Shown: in pieces, positions 4,884-45,800 of the stretch
Position numbering within the stretch: the first letter of the stretch is position 1
How the letters are laid out: each line of letters opens with the position of its first letter
Source of the DNA: Octopus sinensis
Taxonomy: Eukaryota
Direction: 5' to 3'
NCBI RefSeq assembly: GCF_006345805.1
Contig: NC_043000.1
Coordinates: 98,394,001-98,458,000 of the forward strand
DNA: 64,000 nt
The notes under the pieces: generated by a model
Databases searched by the model: none
Told to the model about the DNA's origin: nothing
What the model saw: the letters and a program-made list of their open reading frames with translations, nothing else
Made by a program: the position numbers and the translations under genes

Positions 4884-5084
4884 CTATGGAATATAATTAA
4901 AGATAGATTTATATTACAGATGTGTAAACACTGGTTGGAGATGCATAGGTAAGTCAAATAAACCTGATTGTTAATTGCTATAGTAAGTTTCTTCTTCTTC
5001 TTCTTCTTCTTCTTCTTCTTCTTCTTCTTCTTCTTCTTCTTCTTCTTCTTCTTCTTCTTTTCTTCTTCTTCTTCTCTTCTTCTT

Positions 5085-5117
<33 letters not shown>

Positions 5118-5149
5118 CTTCTTCTTCTTCTTATTATTATTATTATGCA

Positions 5150-6696
5150 ACTTTATAGTAATTTAGTTAGCAGGTATTTTATCATAAAATCTGTTGACAA
5201 GTCTCTTTGAATCACATAACTCGTTTTTAAGCTACTTACAGGATATAGGATGGTACTTTTCTGTACGTCGACCATGTAAGTTTCAATTTCAGGCTCTTTC
5301 AGTCTCTTAGATAACAGTTTGGGTGTTTTGCAATGTGCACCCATAACTAGAGGAATAATTGTCATATTGGTCTTCCACAGTCTCCTCAGCTCTCTGGCTG
5401 TATCCTGATATTTCTCATTTTTTATAAATTTCTTTGGTATCGACTCTGGTATCGACTTTGGTATCGCAGGGAATTACACAATCTATGATCTTGCAATATT
5501 TATTTTGTCCGCTACGATTATATTTAGTCTTCTTGATTAAATAGCGCGACCAGACTTTATGGGGAAACCTCACAAAACTTTGTAATTCTCATTTTCCATC
5601 ATGGCCTTTGATTCATGTGCATGCCAATTTTCTTTGAGGCTACGCACTCGGTTAACATCCCACTTCATTATTTTCCTTACACACTCATTTCTGTGCCTAT
5701 ACCCCTTTTGTGCTAGTACACTGAACTCATTCAGAAGCTGATTCATACTTTCGTCTCCTTTTCATCACATTTGCTATCTGACTGAGTTTTGTCGATCTTT
5801 GCCTTTATCAGATTTGCTCCAAGGGCTTGATTCTGAGCGGCTATAATTAGCGTTTCTGTTTCTCGTTTCAAGTTGCGCTTTGTCAACCAGAGCCAGCGAT
5901 CTTTACTTCCAGCATTCACGGTTTGTTGTAAGAATTAGCCATGTGATCCGTTTACTTCCATTTGTTCGCTCTGTTTTTCTTCTAGCTATTCCTGGCTGCT
6001 GATAGTATTTTTCTTTACTCTGCACAACATGATTCTTCAGACCCAGTATCACAGTATTAACAGTGTCTCCTGCGTTTAATAATCCTCTTCAATTATTCTT
6101 TCTTGACAGGTAGAGTCTGTTGGTATTGCTTTCAGGTTGAATGCATTGTGCATTGCTAGAAGCTTTCTAGTTCTTCTATCTAAATTCTGTAGCTTGATCT
6201 TCGTCCATTTCAGAAACGGGTAGCGTATTTCAATACTGGCATAGTCCATATATTTATAGCTTTAATGATGTTTCCTCTATTTAATTTTATTTCCAGCATC
6301 TTAATTCTTATCTTGTTCAGTAAGTTTAGTAAGTTTCTCTCTCATTTCTCCTTCCATTATCCTATCTTTGTTGTAGCAATCTCGGATATTTGTACCGTCA
6401 TTATTGTATAGCGAGCTAATGACGTTGTCGTGTGGTAATTGTATGTCATGACACTTTACTTTCCGACCTCTCTCCATAATTAGTCCTGCGCATTTGTTTA
6501 CCCTCAAATTGCATACCAATATCTTAATCGGATATTCTCATTGCTTGGATCTGAGAGTCTAGGACTGCATACAATTTGAGGTCACCTACTAATCTCCTGA
6601 TTTATTTTCACCTTGGTTTTGGTAAACTCAGAGGCAGGCTTGGATTTCCTCAGTACACTTGTCAGAGGGATTACCACCATAAGTAGTATTAGTAGC

Positions 6697-6743
<47 letters not shown>

Positions 6744-7380
6744 AGAGAGAGAGAGAGAGAGAGTGGGTGAGAGTGAAAGAGAGAGTGAGTGAAAGTGAGA
6801 GAAAGAATGAGTCTCTCTGACATATGCTCTTGCATATTTTCACGCTTCCTAGCAATTCATTTGCACATGTCAGTTCTACTTCCTACACTCACTGCTTTCC
6901 CCATATAGCTGTTTATCTTCTCATTCACTCCGAGTGTCCTCAGGTACTCCAAGAATCAGATGTGCTGGATATTATCATAAAACGTTCTGTCATCAATCCC
7001 TCAAACAGCTAAATTCTTCCTCACTCGTGCCCTATTTAATGTTCTATTATCTATATATATCAGATCAGCAGTTTCTCTTGATTTCTTCCTACATCCTTTT
7101 CGTTTCTCTATAAAAATAGGCTTTCCTTTCTCAAAAACTGTATACTTCGTCAGTTTTGAAACCAGTTAATAGTTTCCAGAGAAATGATGAGCAAGTAATG
7201 AGTCTACGATTGCTGATTTCCACCTCCCTTTTCTCTGTAATTCTATACTCTATATTAGGACTGTCCCCGCTTTTGTCATCTATGTTGGCGATCAATTTTC
7301 AATGCAGTCTATAACAAAATGGTCGTATATAGTTGTGTATACTTTGTAGACGCTGGAGCAAAAAGGGCAGCCGGTTGTAG
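5150..7380 (-). mobile_element. Decayed non-LTR retrotransposon, R4/Dong-like (RT plus restriction-like endonuclease)
   Basis: Fragments TIIPLVMGA..., IAAQNQALG, NKCAGLIMERGRKV...; the 3' end abuts a (TTA)n/(TTC)n tract. Boundaries are approximate. Confidence 0.75.
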
Positions 7381-8109
7381 TATCACCTACAGTGCCGGGG
7401 AGGGGGGCTACAGTGAACAAAAGCATTTGCTCAGTGGTCAGATTTAAATGCTTTGCCGCAGGTCACCTTCGTAGATGATACTCAAGTGCGCTCGAACGCT
7501 GACGAACAAAATAAGATTGAACTCTATCCCATAGAAGGAAACACTCTCATAAAGTAACAGATCATTCATCTCAGTACTGGTGTTGCTTACACAAATGGCC
7601 TGCTCTGTGGTAGCTAATTCAAGTTAGGAAATGCCACCGCTAATTCTTGATCGCAGACATAATGCAGCATCAGGAGCAGATAAGATCTGACAACTTTTAC
7701 GATACTTCATTAACAAGAACTTGTGGGTTTTATTAGAGACGAGAGGAAAAAGGAAATCCCCTCTTCTGCAAAGTTTTGTCACAAGCGCTCAGCAGATTTT
7801 GTGTAGGAGTCGGCCATTTTACGTTAAAGGAATTTCAATAACTTTAGAGTTTATTGTAAACTGATCATAAAACATGAAAGATAAAATTGAATTTTATTAA
7901 CAAGGCTCAAGAAACTTTAGCTTTTATCTATTTAAAAAAAGTCAGGGGATTAGTGGGTGATACAATTTTATGTTCGCTTGAACTTAGCATGTGTCATAGT
8001 AAAGAGAGGTTGTATTGAATATATCGTTATGTGATAATATTCTCTTTCTAATATTTTCTCTTAGATTAGATATTCTCTATAGGTCAGAATATCTCTATAC
8101 GTCAGATAT

Positions 8110-8294
8110 TAAAGTTCTATATTTAAGCGATGATGAATTATGTACATTATTTACATTATTTACATTCGACGGATATTTGTCCTCATTTTGTTTGTTGTTA
8201 ACACAACGTTTCGGCTGATATACCGTCCAGCCTTCTTCATGTGTCTTGGGGAAACTTCGAACTTGGATTCTCATTCCTAAGGTATCTTTCGATG

Positions 8295-8337
<43 letters not shown>

Positions 8338-9528
8338 TGTTGTTGTTGTTGTTGTTCAGGTCACTGCTTGGAATCGAACTCGGAATCTTGGGGTTAGTAG
8401 CCCGCGCTCTTAACCACTACGCCATGGGTAATTATGGAGTGAATTTTAGGGCTTATAAATCTATTATTTTAATATCCTTCCTTAATACCAGTTTCCATAT
8501 GCTACTCATATCTGCACTCGGTCTGCTTAAGAGGTTGTTGTGTCCTAGCATATGTACTGCTTCTTTTAGTTTTCGTATTTTCCAATGGTGTTCTCTGTGT
8601 ATTATTTTAACTTCATCCCACAGGGGAAGGTGGTCTCCATTTTTGCATACATGATCAGGTATACCCGATTTATCAATATCTCCTCGTGTTACAGTTTTGC
8701 GATGTTCCTTTAACCTTATTTTGAGGGGGCGGCATGTTTCACCTTTGTATAACCTACCACTGCTGCATAGGATGGAATATACGCAGTCTTTGGTCATATT
8801 CTCTTCTATTGGTGGGTTTAATCGAAGGAGATATTTGCGAAGTGTTGTATTACACTTGAATACTGTCCTGATGCCTTATGGGCCGCATATCTTTTGTATC
8901 TTTTCGGAGAGGCCTTTCACATAGGGTAGACAGACTTTGGACAGTTTATTGGCCTCATCCTCTCTCTTCTTCATAATTGGTGTGGATAGTATACTTTTGG
9001 GGTAGTTGTTGCTTAACAGATCGTTAATGAGCTTGATCATTTCTTCGTGGTGTGTATCAGGATCGCTACTTATATTCTTTGCACGATGTTTAAGGCCCTG
9101 AGCAATCCCTCTCTTTACACTGTATGTATGGTGGGAATTGAAGTTGAGGTATCGTCCAGTAAAAGTCGGCTTGCAGTATACGGATGTCCTAAACCTATAC
9201 TTAGTGCGTGTTATTAATATGTCCAGGAATGCTAGCTGATTGTCTTTTTTCTTTTCCCTTGTGAACAGTATGGATGGCTTTATTGAGTTCACAAGATTTA
9301 ACAGCACTTAGACATCTTCCTGGTGGGCCCAGAGTATAAAGGTGTCATCAACATATCGTAGCCATAGTGTTGGTTTTAGTGGTGTTGATCCTAAAGCCAA
9401 ATTCTCAAAGTATTCCTTGTATATATTGGCTATTACCGGTGATAATGGCGAACTCATAGTTAAACCCTCTTTTTGTCGAGATATATCAGTGTTCATACTG
9501 AAGTAGGTAGTTTCTACATAGAAGGTCA
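8110..9528 (-). mobile_element. 5'-truncated Penelope-like element (RT, GIY-YIG endonuclease, pLTR)
   Basis: GLTMSSPLSPVIANIY, WLRYVDDTF, LAFLDILI, VYCKPTFTGRYLNFNSHH, CVYSILCSSGRLYKGETCRPLKIRLKEH; interrupted by stops and frameshifts. Confidence 0.92.
8200..8245 (-). ncRNA. Degenerate minimal hammerhead ribozyme in the Penelope pLTR
   Basis: Minus strand GACAC-AUGAAGA-aGGCUG...CAGCC-GAAA-CG-UU-GUGUU; C3 is mutated to A. Confidence 0.6.
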
Positions 9529-9594
9529 ACAAATATACGAAGTTTAAAGAAATAATAGAATGAGAGTAAATATATTTCAAACAAATTGTCTTAC

Positions 9595-9828
9595 CTGTAT
9601 AGCTTGCTTTTTGAACACTGTATGATATATCCTTAAGATGTAAAGGTACGACTGCTACGTAAACATCTGCGTTTGGCCGGTTAGAGTCACAGCTGTAATT
9701 CACCTCAGAATATAAAGATGATGTGTTCAGAGAAGTAAGACGAACTTGTGGAATAGATGGGATAGATATGTTTATGCTCCGTTCGGCAACAATGGTGTTG
9801 CTATAAAACAATTTGCACGTTATCTTCA
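9595..9828 (-). CDS. Ig cassette 2, exon B
   Basis: 234 nt, phase 1-1, CAG/GTAAGA; KITCKLFYSNTIVAERSINISIPSIPQVRLTSLNTSSLYSEVNYSCDSNRPNADVYVAVVPLHLKDISYSVQKASYT. Confidence 0.9.
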
Positions 9829-10767
9829 CTGTAGAATAGAAACATGGAAAGTAATGAGTTACGAACATAAGCTTTGTTTAAAGCGTAATATGTTTATGCA
9901 AATAATTGTCAAATAATTTGTTTTAGGAACGTTGAATCTCGAGTAAATAAAACTATAAACAATAGTATGTAAATAGTTCATAGAAAACCTTGCTAATTGG
10001 GGCTAAATGGACAATGATACTTGAATACATCCAACAAATGTTTCTATCGTACAGCAATTTATTCGCAATTAGTGTATTACGCAATCCAAACCCACCAGCC
10101 TCTCCAACAGCTATTCTGAACTACCGATAGCAAAATATCGGCGGACGACTTTTTTCTACGATAGTATAGAATGGCTGTTGAACTGCTTGTGATTTGGATT
10201 TCGTAATACAACAGTTGCGAATGAGTTACAATGCTACTGAACATATGTTGCATGTATTATACTGTCATTTTACACAACTGATATCAATCAAATGTTTGTT
10301 CAACTTAACATGTGTATGTATGTATGTATGTATGTATGTATGTATGTATGTATGTATGTATGTATGTATGTATGCATGTATGTATGTATACACACACATA
10401 TATGTGTATGTGAGAATGTGTGTGTGTGTGGATGGGTGTGGGGTATGTGAGAGTCGTGTTGGTGGGGTGTAGTGTTGGTGCAGGTGGTATCAATGAAGAA
10501 CGGTGGTAGGAGTGAAGAGAGGAAGTAGATATCAGAGGAAGAGAGGGGAGTAGAAGAGAAGTGGGTAGGAGTGAAGAAAGGAAGTAGGCGTCAGATGAAG
10601 AGATAAGGAAGTTGAGCCCATGTGGCGCAAAAGAGCGAAGGGAGAGGATTAATCCCCGTTCACGGCGAAGGCGGGAGTCCGGGGACCCCTGTGTAGAGAC
10701 AATCCGAACACAGACAGGTGTTGTAGGGAATGACTGGTAGAGCGGATATAGCGTGTGACCGGGGTGT

Positions 10768-31870: not shown

Positions 31871-32553
31871 TGTGTATGTAAGTATATATGTATATGTATA
31901 TTTGCATGTGTAGGTGTGTGTATACCAAATCCAAAGAAGCAAACCACACCCACACCAAGTTTTCGACCATGTTGCCATGAAGGGCCAACCAAATCTAAAG
32001 ACGCGAACCATACCCACACCAAATTCTCGACCATGTTGCCGCGATGTCCAACCATCAAAGAATTCCTCAAACTTTAGACCACTTTTCATTGAAAAGCCAT
32101 TCTGACCTTACCATCTATTCTTTCTATTTTATTTTTTGCAGTATTTAACTACCACTTCCTGAATATATACCAGCAATCCTGCCTCATTAAAGGATTTGCG
32201 AACTGCTATAAATGCGCGCATCATATCAGCCACATTCTGCTACACAGAGTAGCGAAATGTACATAATGTAACGCCGTAACGTATTATGTAACCGGATGAA
32301 GTTTCTTCTGTACTGTGCGATGCATTTAATTCCATTAGATCGTTTCTCACCCACTAGGGGGTAGTGGAGATGTAAGCCAAAATGGTCGTCGTGCTAAATA
32401 AAGCTTACAATACACTGTTTCCCCTATCAAGTATTTAATACACACATACACGCACAGGCATATGTATACATAAAGCGGTTTAACATGGTATATACATACA
32501 TGTATATGGGTGTTATATGTTAATGAAAGAAGCAAAGAAAAAATCCAATATAC

Positions 32554-32619
32554 CTGTTGGAACCGGAGTGGTTGTCTTTGGGCCGAGTGTAGTAATTAAC
32601 GTTGTTTGTGAATCATTCA
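32554..32619 (-). CDS. Thr/Pro-rich mucin-like linker exon 2 (paralogue of 35911-35991)
   Basis: Acceptor cctttTTAG, donor GTATAT; 66 nt, phase 1-1; (V)NDSQTTLITTLGPKTTTPVPT. Flanking intron sequence is homologous to that of linker exon 1. Confidence 0.7.
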
Positions 32620-33131
32620 CTAAAAAGGTATAATAATATCATTATGTATAATATTTCATATTATATACAGTCATTACTATATATATGTTATAGAGTATGA
32701 AGTCATTTCTCAGAAAAACTAACATACACACATACATACATACATACATACATACATACATACATACATACATACATACATACATACATACATACATACA
32801 TACATACATACATACACACACACATACATACATCGAAACCTCCAGTTTCTATACCAAGATTATAAATTCACATTTATACCCTTAAAAATGATGTACTTGC
32901 TTTTGTGAGTAAATGCCTATTTGACACATATGAATAAGCTGGGGTTTTCAGAAAAAAAAATCAACTAGCTAATCCGTACATTCCAAATACAGTCTGTAAG
33001 CAGAACAATAAAAATGCGAGTTTGTTTTTGTTATATATATTCCAGCGATAGAGCTTTCTTTGTACCTTTGTCGAAATACAACTCTTTCCATATTAGGTGA
33101 TTTCAAATAATTAAATAAGACAGAACTACAC

Positions 33132-33172
<41 letters not shown>

Positions 33173-34124
33173 CATACATACATTCATGCATGTAGACATG
33201 CATACATACATTTATGTGGGCGTGTAAGCCTGTATGTATTATTTATACAATAAAATATTGCATTGAAGACTGCAGCATGAAGTAGATATATGATATTCAC
33301 GGTCCTGTTGAATATTCTGTTATCTTATTTTCACTGTGCATAGATGCTGCTGCTTCTTAATTGCTAACATGGGAGCGTGTATATGAAGCTCAACTTGCAA
33401 AAGTGCTGGCCAAAACAGGCCTTGCATCAGACGCATCCAAAAATAAATCTAGATGAGGTGATGACTGTTGCAGTTCTTTGAACATAGGTCAGTCAGTACT
33501 GACACAGTTCTAGCGGCATTTGCAGCTGCAACAACAACAACAACAACAATAACAACACAATGACAACAACGACAAAGGCGACAATGACGACGACATCAAC
33601 AAAGGCAATGACACTAATCTTATCACCTGATGAAAATTTTACAAATGTTTGTAACTCGGAGACAAATTCTAAAATATCAAAATACCACGGCTGCAAACCA
33701 TTTGAATTAAACTTCAGAGTCATTTCCAAGTATTTCACAAGGCTCAATCATGATAGAGTTACATGAGCTTTAGTTGGTTGTAGCTGATTAGCTCTTTATC
33801 AGCTCTGAACGAACACGTATTCGGAAGCCTTTATTAACAATGATACAGTTCTTTATACTTGATTCTTAAGGGAGACTTAGAGCTTTGTAGCGACAGTTGT
33901 GTTCCACAATTGATAGTTGTCAATTGTGGAACACGACTGTCCCAACTACTACATAAACCTGATGATAGCTTTAACACATGGAAGTACTAGTTTTATTAAA
34001 ATAAATATATAATATTCTGTCATTATTATTTTGAAAAATTGTAAAAGTTTTAAATAATAAAACGTGAAATCAGACTACGTTGGAATTTTGCTGATTAATA
34101 TCTTCTTCTAAACAATCATAAAAA

Positions 34125-34191
<67 letters not shown>

Positions 34192-34352
34192 TAATTGTTA
34201 TCGCCATATTAATATGGCATTCTTATAGATATAAGAATAATCGCTGCCGCTGGTCAGCTCCATGAGGCCACCGCCATCAAGATAGCTATTGATACACGAT
34301 CTGTATCCATTATAACCTTCGAACAAGGGAGGTCAGCCGCTTCACACTGCCA

Positions 34353-34412
34353 GTCTGACAGCTACAGACGCGTTTCGGGGTATTGCCCCTTGTCAATGTA
34401 GCGCAGTCAGAC
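34353..34412 (-). ncRNA. Minimal type I hammerhead ribozyme, U3-A8 core variant (copy 1)
   Basis: GUCUGACugc-GCUACA-UUGACAA-GGGG caaua CCCC-GAAA-CGCG-UC/UGUAGC-u-GUCAGAC. Confidence 0.85.
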
Positions 34413-34716
34413 CTGCAGGTGTCGCCACTGACGTCTCTGTTCGAAGGTTTCTATTTACCTAGTTTCAGTGGAATACATCCACTTGTTTTCAATAATAGAA
34501 ATATTAAAATTACTAAGTCTCTATAAAAGAGATTACGGCAGCGTTTACTGGAAATTAATTGTTATCGCCATATTAATATGGCATTCTTATAGATATAAGA
34601 ATAATCGCTGCCGCTGGTCAGCTCCATGAGTCCACCGCCATCAAGATAGCTATTGATACACGATCTGTATCCATTATAACCTTCGAACAAGGGAGGTCAG
34701 CCGCTTCACACTGCCA

Positions 34717-34776
34717 GTCCGACAGCTACAGACGCGTTTCGGGGTATTGCCCCTTATCAATGTAGCGCAGTCAGAC
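34717..34776 (-). ncRNA. Minimal type I hammerhead ribozyme, U3-A8 core variant (copy 2)
   Basis: Same fold as copy 1; core UUGAUAA, differing only at the freely variable position 7. Confidence 0.85.
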
Positions 34777-34890
34777 CTGCAGGTGTCGCCACTGACGTCT
34801 CTGTTCGAAGGTTTCTATTTACATAGTTTCAGTGGAATACATCCACTTGTTTTCAATAATAGAAATATTAAAATTACTAAGTCTCTATAA

Positions 34891-34950
34891 GTCTGACTGC
34901 GCTACATTGACAAGGGGCAGTACCCCGAAACGCGTCTGTAGCTGTCGGAC
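34891..34950 (+). ncRNA. Minimal type I hammerhead ribozyme, U3-A8 core variant (inverted copy 3)
   Basis: gtctgactgc-GCTACA-TTGACAA-GGGG cagta CCCC-GAAA-CGCG-TC/TGTAGC-tgtcggac; predicted cleavage after 34936. Confidence 0.85.
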
Positions 34951-35172
34951 TGGCAGTGTGAAGCGGCTGACCTCCCTCGTTCGAAGGTTATAATGGATAC
35001 AGATCGTGTATCAATAGCTATCTTGATGGCGGTGGCCTCATGGAGCTGACCAGCGGCAGCGATTATTCTTATATCTATAAGAATGCCATATTAATATGGC
35101 GATAACAATTAATTTCCAGTAAACGCTGCCGTAATCTCTTTTATAGAGACTTAGTAATTTTAATATTTCTAT

Positions 35173-35204
<32 letters not shown>

Positions 35205-35209
35205 ATATA

Positions 35210-35277
<68 letters not shown>

Positions 35278-35399
35278 TAAAATAAAAAAGAGTGAAAACA
35301 CTACAGAAGGCTTGTGTTATAAGGTTAAAGAATATATTTAAGTCGTTATGTCAGAAAAATGTTATAAAATTTTGTGTATAGTAACATAGTTTTTGGAGA

Positions 35400-35800
35400 A
35401 ATAACCGGTTTCGTATAGTCTTTTCAAATTTCTCAAATTTCTTTACCTACATCGTGTCATATCTTCGCATGAAGTGAAGAGTTACAGGCAGGAGAAAGTA
35501 ATCAGGGATTTCTTCTAGTATAAGGGAGATAATCGTTTTATATTTTTTTATATTTTTTTCAATGAGATGAGTTTCCTTGTATAAAAATGTTAGAATGGTT
35601 AAGTTTTGGTTTATATTTTTCAATGAAGAATGTTTCCTCATTTAATCTAATTTGTGTAGGTGCTCCAATAGCACATTGATAGAATGGTGGAAAGATTAAA
35701 AATTGTGGTAGTAGTTGCTTTGCGCATTTCTCAATATGTTCACTAAAGGGCATCATTCTGTATTCTGGGAATGCAATCCTTATCTCTCCTTCTGATTTCC
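35400..35800 (-). mobile_element. Penelope-like 3' remnant (GIY-YIG C-terminus)
   Basis: FSEHIEKCAK...FLIFPPFYQC...IRLNEETFFIEKYKPKLN. Confidence 0.65.
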
Positions 35801-35910
35801 TATGTGTGTGTTTAATATCACACACACACACACAAACACACATGCACATTCACATACACGCACACACAAACATATTAATGAAAGAAGCAAAGAGGAAAAA
35901 TCCAATATAC

Positions 35911-35991
35911 CTGTTACTGTGGGGTCTGTTGTAACCGGATTGGTTGACAGTGGGTCGTGTGTAACGATTATCGTCGATTGTGAATCAAACG
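35911..35991 (-). CDS. Thr/Pro-rich mucin-like linker exon 1
   Basis: Acceptor cttttTTAG, donor GTATAT; 81 nt, phase 1-1; (T)FDSQSTIIVTHDPLSTNPVTTDPTVT. Confidence 0.7.
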
Positions 35992-36104
35992 CTAAAAAAG
36001 ATATAATAATATCATTACGTTTAATATTTCACATTATATGCAATTGGTAAAATCGCTCTAGTTTTCTGGGGTTATTTTTTACGTCAAACCTGAACTCTTT
36101 ACCG

Positions 36105-36700
36105 AAATGGTATATATATATATAAAAGAACTAGAGTGCTTTCATCAACAGAAGCTCCGTTTTATTATGAATATCAAATGCAATGACAATGTGACCGATG
36201 ACTCCGTTTTAGAGGGAACGAAAAGCAACAGCACCATCGCGGCCATCATCCTGAAGCATCATCTGAGATGGGCGGGCCTCATAGCAAAAATGAAAGAGAC
36301 CAGACTGCGTCGTCAAATTTTATATAGTGAACTTTCCACTAGAAGAAGACTGCGTGGCCATCCCCTCCGTCGACACAAGCATCAGCTGAAGTAAAGCCTA
36401 AAACTGACTGGAATCGATCCCAAAGCCTGGGACATTAAAATTCAGGATAGGCCCGGCTGGCATCATTCCATCTCCACTGTGATAGTTCATTTTGAAGCTG
36501 AACGACAGAGGAAAGAAGAGAAACAACAAGTAAGAAAATGGAAGCTGCAACAACCAAAGCCCCCACCACGGATACCTTGAAAACTTTGCAATAGACGCTT
36601 CCATGAAAAAAACATCCTCATTAACCATCAGAGGCATAAACACGGACAGACGGGAAGAAGCAGTCAAGAAGAAGCCAAATAAATTATCAGACACACGATA
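36105..36700 (+). mobile_element. RTE-clade LINE fragment
   Basis: LECFHQQKLRFIMNIK, HLRWAGLIAKMKETRLRRQILYSEL...RGHP. Confidence 0.85.
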
Positions 36701-38233
36701 AAACGCCACCGCCGACGATGACGCTATGCAGTCATTACTATGTATATATTATAAAGAATATTACTCTACCTCCGGTATTTGAGTACTATTTTTCCTATCT
36801 TGTTTCAGATTTATGTGCTTACTCTGGTGTATTATAAAGTATGAAGTTATTTCATCCTCGGACGTTCTAAATGGAACTGCAGTGGTGATCATTTCAGATT
36901 TCAGTGTCGTTCAACAAGCAAACAGAAAATTGATAACTTTTTATTGATACAAGTAAGCATATGATGAAAACCTTTCTTGCAATGGCCGTACATTGTTTTC
37001 AGGTTTATTTAGGACGGTTGCCTAATATATTTTTCCTACTAAAGTCAACATACATACATTCGTACATATCCTTTAAATTCGTCTACAGGAAACGATTTTG
37101 ATTATGCATATAAAAGCACCTAATCTATCATGCTGGCTACAACCTAATGATACCAACTGACACAACATCTGGTACTAAAGTTAAATGGTTTGACCTTAGT
37201 TAAACCAACAAACTATACTACCCATCCTAACATCTGCATACTCAAATATCAAAATATATCTAACATTACCACACAAACCACCCTCTCCTTTATGACTACC
37301 ATTCCTTTCTCTATTTCCATCACAATTCACTCCCCAATTATACACAGAACTTCCCACACACCTCAGTCAACCTTTTCAGTATCAGCTGTCCACAGCCAGC
37401 AGACTAAGATGACACTTGTTTACTGGTCATGCTTCAAGAACCCTGCGAAGAATTTTTGCAGTTCCAAGAAATGCTGATTTTTCCACCTTCACATTTGTAC
37501 CAATCTGTCTGAGTTATGTTTGTAGTTGAGTGCTGATACTTCTAAGTGCCCACATTACTATTGGTACCACGTCTACTTTCCTCATTCACCCCAACATTCG
37601 TATTTCCCACATCAAATCGTCATAGTTATTTAGTTTTACTTCTTTCTATTTGATCCTGTTGTCACCGGGACATGCAATGTCGATTATTATGCAAGTTCTT
37701 TCTTTTTATTCACCACAACAATGTCTGATCAGGTGATCGCACTGAAAATTTGTAGCCCACAGGATTTTGCCACTCTCATTCTCAGTGACACCTTCTGGAG
37801 TTTGCTCATACCACGTCTTTGCTCTTTGTAGACCATTATTTCTACAGAGCTCCCAATGGATCATTTTTGTGACATGGACCCTATGTAATACATGTGTAAA
37901 ATTTCATTAAAATCAGTTGGGTGGATCTCAAGTTTTAGCAACTTGACAAACATAGAGACAACATCTTGTGTTTTATATATATATATAGATAGAGATTGGG
38001 GAGTTGTAAATATAGTAACTTTAGTCTTTTACTCTTTTATTCATTTCTGTCATTTGACTGCCTTGAAGGATTTAGTCGATCAAATCAGCTCTAATATTAT
38101 TTTTTTTAAGCCTGGTACTTATTCCATCGGTTTCTTTTGTTGAAATACTCTTGTCGAGCCGCTATGGTTACGGAGTCTTAATCAAACCAAGCGGTATGTG
38201 GACAAACTCAAAGATACGCACGCACGCGCACTA

Positions 38234-42649: not shown

Positions 42650-42797
42650 AAATAAATAAATGGAGTTAAACTCAGGTGTTATTCAAATCTTTTTACTTCC
42701 AACATATGTTTCGAAGAAACATTTTGAAGGTAGAGTAGACAATCATCACGCTATAGAGATCCATTGATGTCTGGAAATTGGTCAGCCATCTCATAAA

Positions 42798-42868
<71 letters not shown>

Positions 42869-45800
42869 GTCCAAATCAGCGATTTGTGCTGAATCAGAAC
42901 TTCCCATCGTGACATCAAAACTCTTGGACGTATCTTTACGGACCCATAGTTTGTTATCAAATTTAATAATAGATTTTCTGGTGGCTAACACGACATTAAT
43001 TTCACCCCTGGTGAGACCTGCTTTGTTGTGAACGAGCATGAGTGCCTTGTTGAGTACGATTGGGTTGACAGAGAAACAGGAACTAGAAATGTCAAACTGA
43101 ATAAACTTAGTGCACTTCTTGTTAATAGAATTAATCCAGTCGACCAGTTGGAACGAATTAGACCATAAATTAAGCTTTAATTTTTCAAACTAAGGTAGGA
43201 ATATATATATCTAGAATATTTTTGCTAAGTAAATCGATATCAGAGCTAGAAAGACAAATAAGTCATAAGATTGTGTTATTAAAAAATTTGTTTGTGATCT
43301 TTTAAAATAATACGCGGTTGTTTGGAACCAAGGGGTTCTGCCTTCATCTATAAGTCATATTTCTCCATAATTTTCTTAGCCTCAAGGTTGAATTTCCTGA
43401 TTGCACTTTTACCGGTAATCCTATAATTCTTTTGTATTTCTTTTCTAAGCAGTTCTAGGTAATAATCCTTGATAACCCTGTATAGGTTTCATGTTTTATC
43501 CGATTGAACCAGTATTCCATTCATTTATGAATTTTTTTGGTGATATTGTGAAGATACCTGAAGATGTTTATTCCTTAGGGTGAACGGTGGAATTTCACAT
43601 TTCTCACGGTAGACCAGATTTCGTCTTCGAACTGTTTCAAGATCGTTAGAGGGCTGTTTAATGTTTTTATTGTCGAAGAAAAAGGTAAGCCATCTAATAC
43701 TGTTAATAAAGGAGTTTGTCTCACTAATGAGTTGCTTAAGGAAAACCTTCCTTGGGGCAAAGGATATATCCTTAAGAGATGTGTTTATATCAAATAACTC
43801 CATATGTAGTAACTATTTTATTAGTAGGTTATATGGAAACCTGTTTGAAATGTATATAAATGTATGTGAATTTTTTGAATGTTTACAAATAACAGGGAAA
43901 AATTAAATAAATAGTTACCAGGGTAGCGAAAATTCACACAAGTACCAAGGATGTAACAGCCTACTTATAAAGGTAGAAATTCCAGGTTTTGGTGACATGT
44001 TTTTGTATGACATAGATAAATAAATAAATGGAATTAAACGCAGGTGTTACTCAAATCTTTTTCCTTCCGACATATGTTTCGAAGAAAACATTGATATTAT
44101 TCCGGAAGGAATAAAATGATGAAAAATAATGCAATCTTCTCATCAGGGAAAGAAAGAAACCATACACATAAGACATTTTAACAGAATATGAGGACTGCGT
44201 AAACGATGAAGGGAACGCAAGGAAGTTTCTTTAAAAAAACCGTTAATAGCTATAACGTCAAAGGTAGTTTATAGAAAGAGAAGGGTGAGAAAGAAAGTAA
44301 TTAGCAGAAAACTAATAGTGGGGGGATATAGAGAGATAGGTGGATAGGAATAAAGCTTAAAGGCTTGGAAGTAGATATATTTAGTGGAAGTGAAATATAA
44401 GAAGACAGTCAAAGGTCGAATTTTATAGAATGGCAGAAATCACTAATAGGAACTAAAAGTATTTTTGCCAATGTTTACAACGATAAACGTGTTTTATAAA
44501 CGTGTTCACAAGAGGATTCTCTGAGAACAGGATGAAATACTCGTTACAAAGCGGACAAAAAGATTTACCTTTATCATATGGAAATGATATAGATAGAATA
44601 TTCCATTCCAAATCAAATTGTTTATTATGATCCTTTAGATACCAAATTAATTTACTAAGCCCAGTATTGTTACGTTTATTGATATGTCTAAATGTAGAGT
44701 AATGATAAGATATTCTTTTGGACAACTGAGATGAAGAGCTACCTATATAAAAAAGGCGTCAGAACCAGAAGTAATTTTACATAAATAGAGTTTCTAGTCT
44801 TAGAATTACTGCCAAGGTAACGAATGCGATTGGAATCCACATCAGGAACACTAACACCGTTGCTATTATCATTTAAAGAATGGTTATTGTTAACAATATC
44901 AATGTTACTATTTTCATTAAGTGTATTTGGATTTAACAACCTATTATGCGAAGAGATGATTTGTGAACGATTTTTGGTGTTAGAAAACCCTATCCGGATT
45001 CGGAGTGAATTAATAATCGAATAGTATCTTGAATTTCTTGGGAAAGCTTCACGAAACTGGTATGGAGGTTGGATATGATCTGCTTACCATATGGAATTAT
45101 CAACTAAACCTTTTGCTAGAATATACCTTTTTATTAGGGTAATTATCTTTAAAAGTCCTCGATGTACTTTTATAGCGAAAAACGGGTCTTAAATAACGGT
45201 TATCTCTCTCACGCTGCAAAATTACATTACTCGATTTAGTGTTGTTATTCGATCTAAAATTGATATTGTTAATATCATTATGATTTGATTTCATGTCCTG
45301 ATTAATAGAGGTAGAATTAATGTCAATAGGGTTAATATAGGTAATTTCTTCTTTATAGCCTGCTTTAAATAAAGCAGAGTTATAAAATTCTGCTTTATCG
45401 TTGAAGATATCAACATTAGCTGATAATCTAGAAAGTCTAAGTGAAATATTCCTAACTATACTCGTTGTAATAGCCTTAGAGTGATTACTGAAAGAGCTAA
45501 TATATTTTAAATTAGTCGAGGGTTTATGGTATGCGAAACATGAATCATTATGCAAAAGTAAAGTAAGGAAGAATATATGCGAGTGGAGTACTTAAGCTGC
45601 AAGCTGTCATAAATATAGGGCGCACTAACCTATTTATTTCACTTAAAAATAAACTGTGTTCAACAGTTAACAATGTAGATAAAAAAACTAAATATCAAAG
45701 AAAAATTGACAGCAAAAGTTTCGTAATGTATATTTTCTGGAGTTCTAGTATGACCAATAATCTTATTGTAGGGTGTAATTTGAGTGAGATATTACCAATG

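Follow-up and report, generated by a model that had tools for sequence, protein, structure and literature searches.

Penelope-like elements (PLEs) have been proposed as the mobilisers of retrozymes (PMC7229834; bioRxiv 10.64898/2026.07.22.740005); for animal retrozymes, the identity of the mobilising enzyme has hitherto been a proposal from co-occurrence and, recently, from pLTR homology. PLE insertions carry marks of their own, i.e., they are truncated and partially tandem, with an inverted 5' copy and, often at one end only, a tail of 30–40 bp (PMC8557442). In vitro, this tail is the stretch between two internal start sites of the reverse transcriptase (RT), and AT-rich DNA is cut on its two strands, both of which are then extended (PMC11167929). 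Hammerheads with a U3-A8 pair occur naturally, with in vitro activity cited (Perreault 2011, PMC3088659), and about 1,300 such motifs are found in Schistosoma PLEs (PMC4209133); this core variant is already published and is not new. Here, we report that a repeat in Octopus sinensis is one insertion of a mobile, genome-wide, non-coding repeat family, which is a non-LTR retrozyme by all features testable from sequence, cleavage and circles being predicted, and which bears a Penelope-type insertion footprint.

The window, i.e., the whole stretch of 64,000 nucleotides that was analysed (contig NC_043000.1, positions 98,394,001 to 98,458,000, forward strand), contains the following features; unit positions (q) are numbered from window 34551 down to 34188 on the minus strand, and E1 and E2 are two fixed 3' ends of the family.
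32554..32620, minus strand: probable exon of the host gene, with AG/GT at its borders and weak homology, downstream of the insertion
34129..34187, no strand: left (TA)n target tract, preceded by an older remnant of a Neptune-type pLTR (its 3' end)
34188..34551, minus strand: copy A, full 364-bp unit, with its 3' end at 34188, the fixed end E1
34353..34412, minus strand: type I hammerhead A, core UUGACAA, predicted cut at 34367/34366
34552..34890, minus strand: copy B, 5'-truncated unit of 339 bp (unit positions 26–364), head-to-tail with copy A
34717..34776, minus strand: type I hammerhead B, core UUGAUAA, predicted cut at 34731/34730
34891..35175, plus strand: inverted 5'-truncated arm (unit positions 140–364 plus 1–60), head-to-head with copy B, terminating at the fixed end E2
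34891..34950, plus strand: type I hammerhead C, core UUGACAA, predicted cut at 34936/34937, antisense to the host gene
35116..35175, plus strand: 60-nt tail between E1 and E2, whose final three bases blend into the TA tract
35173..35274, no strand: right (TA)n target tract
35912..35992, minus strand: host-gene exon upstream of the insertion (homology to protein model P0002)

The insertion is a head-to-head pair between two (TA)n tracts, consisting of a minus-strand arm of 703 bp (34890–34188; q26–364 followed by q1–364) and a plus-strand arm of 285 bp (34891–35175; q140–364 followed by q1–60), the latter being 99% complementary to the former. The first-pass annotation had described two head-to-tail 364-bp copies plus an inverted partial copy in a (TA)n tract; the arrangement stands, but the second direct copy is incomplete. 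It had also placed three type I hammerheads with the core UUGAYAA, and both the motifs and their predicted cut coordinates were right. The label "minimal" has to be dropped: helix I of the motif is 6 bp long and leads via an internal loop into a distal stem, helix II is 4 bp long, and A9 has no extra base behind it, which by the definitions in PMC4209133 makes its predicted fold a type I hammerhead of canonical size, and the long helix II, short helix I, and extra base after A9 of the minimal PLE hammerhead (min-HHR) are not found in it. Copies A, B, and C differ at six positions, each difference being private to one copy, and three of the six lie inside the ribozymes where about one is expected by length, so the copy differences, previously read as a sign of constraint, are no evidence of selection. 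At the wobble position, G is present in copies B and C and in two other close aligned copies and A in copy A, which reverses the direction of the A-to-G change that had been assumed. The unit has a GC content of 42.6%, under the 50% bound used for non-LTR retrozymes, and its longest stop-free stretches are 46 codons (sense) and 65 codons (antisense); it is predicted to pair strongly with itself (fold z = -8.3 linear and -8.6 circular), and the E2 position is at the loop of a predicted hairpin conserved across all subfamilies. Please note that the insertion occupies the terminal TA tract of an older Neptune-type pLTR, whose 3' end (33922–34114, plus strand) has a broken C3-G8 hammerhead and is 74–85% like the ends of loci L160 and L164; an inverted junction lies at ~33890–33941.

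Genome-wide counts of exact patterns confirm that the hammerheads are not chance likenesses. With the helix III of this insertion, the U3-A8 pattern has 1,992 matches (six for the reversed control) and the C3-G8 version has 15 (control four); allowing either base at both positions 3 and 8 gives 2,036 matches (control 19), leaving 29 mixed ones. By these counts U3-A8 is fixed in the family, and a CUGANGA consensus with random decay, for which the genomic copies were checked, is not what they display. U3-A8 had been put forward as a surprise; the fixation is real, but the surprise is not, since the variant is published and is also found in two Neptune-type families of this genome (loci L153–L169; L170 and L172). 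Twelve of the 15 C3-G8 motifs were inspected and were unrelated to the family. Among these, the scattered C3-G8 hammerhead-like motifs at loci L061, L062, L064/L065, and L067 have the identical helix III palindrome and no kinship to the retrozyme family; L061, L062, and L067 have flanking words in common and possibly form another small family. When the two helix III loop bases are left free, the motif has 2,549 matches genome-wide (control 0), 491 of them AU; this is a count of motifs, not of loci. That a standard CUGANGA search would miss the family holds, and the same is true of Rfam, which gave no hammerhead match at E up to 5 in window positions 32000–37500 and none at the gathering score on four loci.

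The sequence variation within the family supports the predicted fold. The subfamily majorities differ at 83 of 364 positions and at none of the 11 core positions (chance ~0.06); within subfamilies, core positions carry one mutation in 735 vs 1.2–1.7% elsewhere, a comparison biased by the many loci fetched by core patterns. In an alignment of 15 real copies, 98.3% of the cells pair and six pairs have changed on both sides; compensatory pairs are seen in helix I (A-U, G-U, G-C), in the closing pair of helix II (G-C, A-U), and in four other helices. The covariation score exceeds 500 of 500 shuffles, the count of doubly changed pairs does not (117/500), and the aligned rows are kin. More informative is helix III, whose two middle bases are expected to be an unconstrained loop in a monomer and to be paired with the other copy in a dimer. 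Among the first 100 matches listed (one contig, hand-counted), the loop is GC in 63, AU in 27, UA in five, and CG in one, i.e., it is self-complementary in 96 and all four possible palindromes are present; the four non-palindromic loops are single CpG-type changes, and the UA and CG forms are not derivable by CpG decay. The predicted duplex is -4.6 to -8.3 kcal/mol for the palindromes and -2.3 and -3.1 kcal/mol for the non-palindromes. A loop kept self-complementary in four forms supports the double-hammerhead fold, so that the dimer mode of cleavage suggested by the first-pass annotation gains from the wider sample, cleavage itself being predicted. There are published reasons for caution here, as eight of nine predicted frog retrozyme dimers failed to cleave (bioRxiv 10.64898/2026.07.22.740005) and PLE hammerhead motifs are weak (PMC4209133). 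A CRE-like word near the ribozyme was dismissed, as it is not retained between subfamilies.

The retrozyme-like character that had been proposed is borne out by the genome-wide family of non-coding tandem units. A DNA search with the unit gave at least 143 matches (40 scored of 2,167 candidates); the monomers are 354–365 bp long, which falls within the 150–450 bp of non-LTR retrozyme units, and tandem arrays reach ~10 units. Sixty-nine full units fall into groups of 30, 20, 17, and two, 8–14% apart, with the copies 1.1–1.8% from their own majority; by this grouping the family has at least four subfamilies, and older forms, at 76–86%, are also present. Copies are closer within than between array loci in 27 of 32 cases, and some arrays have higher-order periods. 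In the array at L083:1083-4349, units 4 and 8 differ by one position and units 5 and 9 by none, neighbours differing by 3–10, and the long array at L081:1160-3327 has alternating variants; for both, the options are a multimer template, later duplication, or assembly error. One could also argue that the whole family is satellite-like repeat DNA, or a product of misassembly, that resembles hammerheads by chance, and the many small indels in some arrays and the duplication of some loci in the assembly are in its favour. We regard this as hardly credible, and at the family level it is refuted: copies whose ends are fixed and whose flanks are unrelated are spread over most of the large contigs, the control counts are near zero, and in the contigs of four public runs (three organism labels; not on record as RNA), 28 of the 28 bins of the unit are covered, indicating that the family is not an assembly artefact.

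How these copies were inserted can be read from their ends. Briefly, 103 loci with 188 arms were analysed after 18 overlapping or duplicated loci had been dropped; the loci were picked by best BLAST score or core pattern, which biases the sample toward long intact copies. The 3' arm ends fall at E1 (q350–364) in 84 arms, at E2 (q50–67) in 77, and elsewhere in 27, i.e., there are two fixed 3' ends 60 nt apart, and TA repeats follow 140 of the 161 standard ends vs a background of 8–12%. The 5' truncations are variable, with ends scattered across the whole unit. An inverted 5'-truncated head-to-head copy is present at 40 of 64 loci in one set and 28 of 39 in another. Among the head-to-head pairs with two standard ends, 52 of 54 combine one E1 with one E2 (32/32 and 20/22; one of the 32, at locus L086, is based on an internal arm); of the two E1+E1 calls, one is an arm that continues into the following unit and the other a piece of 28 bp. 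The combination E2+E2 does not occur, and 16 further pairs have a non-standard end. The tail is at one end only and its 60 nt exceed the published 30–40, and target-site duplications, which in non-LTR retrozymes exceed 4 bp when present, are not discernible within the TA tracts. Taken together, the two fixed ends, the TA targets, the truncations, and the one-of-each head-to-head arms are, as read from these loci, the Penelope "tail" signature on a retrozyme, and this is the new point. From the one-of-each pairing we infer two priming events per insertion, one per DNA strand.

The arms also say something about the template. The predicted cut site is crossed by 130 of the 161 standard arms, at least twice in 23 of them and up to 10 times, and 5' ends coincide with it in two of 188 arms vs 3.6 expected, i.e., there is no pile-up. 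It follows that the template would be a circle or an uncut multimer and not a cut linear monomer. Our preferred reading, which we consider likely, is a non-LTR retrozyme copied in trans into (TA)n by a Penelope-like RT and endonuclease, from RNA with U3-A8 hammerheads predicted to cleave as dimers. Tandem source loci would be transcribed, adjacent hammerheads would pair their palindromic helix III and then cut, and the monomers would possibly be ligated into circles; a Penelope protein would nick both strands of the TA tract, the cDNA would begin at two internal sites, one per strand, and pass the ribozyme site until drop-off, and the two 5' ends would then be joined. The alternative that Penelope machinery moves uncut linear multimer transcripts, with the hammerhead weak or rarely used and circles playing no part, differs from this reading in the template only. 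We think of it as possible though doubtful: the arms across the cut site and the missing pile-up fit uncut multimers as well as circles, some arrays have higher-order periods, and hammerhead cleavage is dispensable for PAc insertion in vitro (PMC11167929), while the absence of changes in the core, the compensation in the helices, and the retention of a palindromic helix III in four forms speak for selection of an active dimer fold, and mussel retrozymes (350–390 bp) accumulate as circles (PMC7229834). In long arrays the units vary and fall into sub-clusters; a template of one monomer circle leaves this unexplained. Please note that the junction of a circle is the same as the junction in tandem DNA, so divergent-primer RT-PCR cannot show a circle. 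A more specific version is offered only tentatively, namely that a Penelope-type RT-endonuclease dimer would recognise a ~360-nt ribozyme-made RNA circle by nothing but its shape, would prime a single time at each of the two fixed sites, which lie 60 nt apart, with one site for each DNA strand, and would travel round the circle in both arms.

The link to Penelope elements that had been suggested earlier is supported by the insertion footprint, but an autonomous partner was not found among 79 PLE loci. Eighty PLE loci were read (40 taken from a pair of protein searches, plus 20 young loci of Hydra-like type and 20 with GIY-YIG), out of 5,029–8,767 candidates per search; clade labels are from the motifs in PMC8557442 and not from a tree, and the Neptune-type label may cover Nematis. 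Two families are young and intact, with frames ~99% alike: a Hydra-like one (DKT motif, no CCHH, 778-aa frames, tail ~150 nt) and a Neptune-type one (DKG, CxxxxCxxC linker, 781-aa frames, tail ~35 nt, U3-A8 core). Both have (TA)n ends, and the one-of-each end pattern is found in seven of the seven two-armed loci with readable ends. The two Neptune-type families with U3-A8 cores both have tails of ~35 nt, and one of them is the family with intact 781-aa frames. The Hydra-like loci L133–L148 (e.g., L135:2374-2460 and 5237-5320) have the hammerhead core CCGAAGA, with C at position 4, and ~56 nt between the core halves; their tail is far above the published 30–40 nt. The 60-nt tail of the retrozyme fits neither the Neptune-type nor the Hydra-like families, and this mismatch, together with the missing partner, stands against the model of copying in trans. 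When the four subfamily units were compared with the 79 loci, the best E value was 9e-4, in AT-rich sequence, the best of 20 shuffles being 0.003, i.e., there was no match above shuffles. E2 agrees with the short end of the Hydra-like elements at 15 of 17 positions, a likeness that was rejected because it is AT-rich and does not exceed shuffles; the folds at the respective ends did not match. An old Poseidon-type family was dropped as a partner because its ends lack following TA tracts.

These searches also bear on the idea that what survives in the copies is the 3' part (pLTR) of an autonomous Penelope-like element, with the tandems derived from its pLTR and the ribozyme serving that element. 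The end pattern is the PLE pattern, 5'-truncated PLE copies are known to leave solo hammerheads (PMC4209133), the U3-A8 pair is shared with the Neptune-type families, and the loci read are a small part of the candidates. Nevertheless, this origin seems very unlikely to us: in the 103 loci, the 5' side of the arms is only more unit, an inverted arm, or unrelated flank; no frame with RT plus GIY-YIG adjoins any retrozyme arm read; arrays of up to ~10 units have no frame; family motif pairs 1.4–8.5 kb apart have no shared sequence or frame between them, including two pairs spaced 4 kb without a PLE frame; and the canonical-size motif is unlike every PLE motif seen in the genome. Judging from these loci, the retrozyme family is not an autonomous PLE, though it inserts like one.

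As the first-pass annotation had it, the insertion is intronic and its two direct copies are sense to the host gene. Exons homologous to P0002, the model of a relative, follow one another in order along the minus strand, starting at 58.9 kb and passing 39.6, 35.9, 32.6, and 28.5 kb downward, so that, by homology, the insertion is in an intron of a minus-strand gene with copies A and B in the sense orientation. The host protein is 89% identical to an Octopus bimaculoides model. The gene (window 1–58900, minus strand) contains Ig-like exon modules, many of them in tandem, along with short exons rich in Thr/Pro, and decayed Poseidon-type and Hydra-like PLE frames are found in its introns (8453–9877 and 42791–45591, both minus strand). 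The protein model of this genome, P0001, starts at ~20.8 kb and P0002 extends to 58.9 kb, so P0001 is probably cut short. As ~43% of frog retrozyme copies are intronic (bioRxiv 10.64898/2026.07.22.740005), the intronic position is ordinary.

Given this orientation, it had been proposed that the two sense hammerheads cut the host pre-mRNA and free a monomer of 364 nt, which then circularises. In favour of this, both copies A and B are intact and lie in the sense orientation, each unit is predicted to fold strongly alone, and co-transcriptional hairpins could delay a long duplex. We nevertheless find this release quite unlikely at the locus. In the predicted equilibrium fold of the host-sense transcript, the 285-bp antisense arm, which is made first, pairs with hammerhead B, whose helix I/II probability is 0.0 vs 0.93–1.0 without the arm; pairing with A would likewise leave one free motif. 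A single free hammerhead has no dimer partner, which disfavours release, and a 1–2-bp helix III cuts poorly as a monomer (6–22% for axolotl motifs, PMC7229834). The predicted near-perfect 285-bp duplex (34492–35175) is a candidate A-to-I editing substrate, and many other family loci would form one too. The window locus is probably inert; most likely, the copy is a dead passenger in an intron, forming a long hairpin, and not a source of circles.

It is not our intention to claim the U3-A8 pair, the retrozyme class, or intronic copies as findings, since each is already known; what we consider of value is the insertion footprint, together with the covariation in helix III. A retrozyme with the PLE-specific tail and inversion pattern is mechanistic evidence for PLE mobilisation, which becomes testable, since the genome offers both a 364-nt RNA whose two start sites are mapped and, as candidate enzymes, the proteins of two young and intact PLE families. 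Models of PLE integration are constrained by the nearly strict pairing of one end of each kind, the occurrence of helix III in four palindromic forms provides covariation evidence from nature for the double-hammerhead fold, and ~2,500 motifs missed by CUGANGA and Rfam searches indicate that retrozyme surveys undercount. If recognition of a circle by shape were true, the family would document, in nature, the retrotransposition of retrozyme circles by PLE machinery, and would offer that machinery a minimal substrate in trans.

In our literature search no report of a cephalopod hammerhead or retrozyme was found, and the main text of the Octopus vulgaris repeat annotation has no occurrence of "ribozyme" or "retrozyme". 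The closest likeness is to the metazoan non-LTR retrozymes of coral, mussel, and axolotl (Cervera and de la Pena 2020, PMC7229834): non-coding tandems of strongly self-paired units of 354–365 bp with 43% GC, one canonical-size type I hammerhead per unit, and thousands of motifs. The octopus helix III resembles that of a weak axolotl motif working as a dimer, and the unit size that of the mussel repeats (PMC7229834). Unlike these retrozymes, the octopus family has a U3-A8 core, a term not found in that main text, as well as two fixed 3' ends, arms inverted head to head, and TA tracts as targets, and the word "inverted" has no occurrence there; tails or inversions in retrozymes are not mentioned in the main text of PMC7229834 or of bioRxiv 10.64898/2026.07.22.740005, though the supplements may do so. 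With PLEs that carry the endonuclease (EN+), of the Neptune and Hydra clades (PMC8557442, PMC11167929), it shares 5' truncation, partial tandems, the inverted 5' copy, the one-end tail, (TA)n targets, and a hammerhead upstream of the ends; it differs in having no RT or endonuclease frame, a tail of 60 nt instead of 30–40, and a larger ribozyme with a distal helix I. Among the Chlamys elements (PMC8557442), non-autonomous ones such as MRC1 have a 3' end similar to that of their autonomous partner, unlike the octopus family, and most Chlamys elements are without hammerheads. The compensated 3-8 pair is common to the octopus family and the U3-A8 hammerheads described earlier (PMC3088659; Schistosoma Cercyon PLEs, PMC4209133); the schistosome motifs are minimal, heterogeneous, and mostly single, whereas the octopus pair is fixed across a young tandem family. 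Finally, the relation to PLEs proposed for vertebrate retrozymes, i.e., that they are non-autonomous PLE derivatives (bioRxiv 10.64898/2026.07.22.740005), is the same as the one proposed here; that study names no cephalopod in the text available to us and its descriptors are canonical or minimal. The evidence in vertebrates is co-occurrence and pLTR homology, whereas in the octopus, where homology is absent, it is the insertion footprint.
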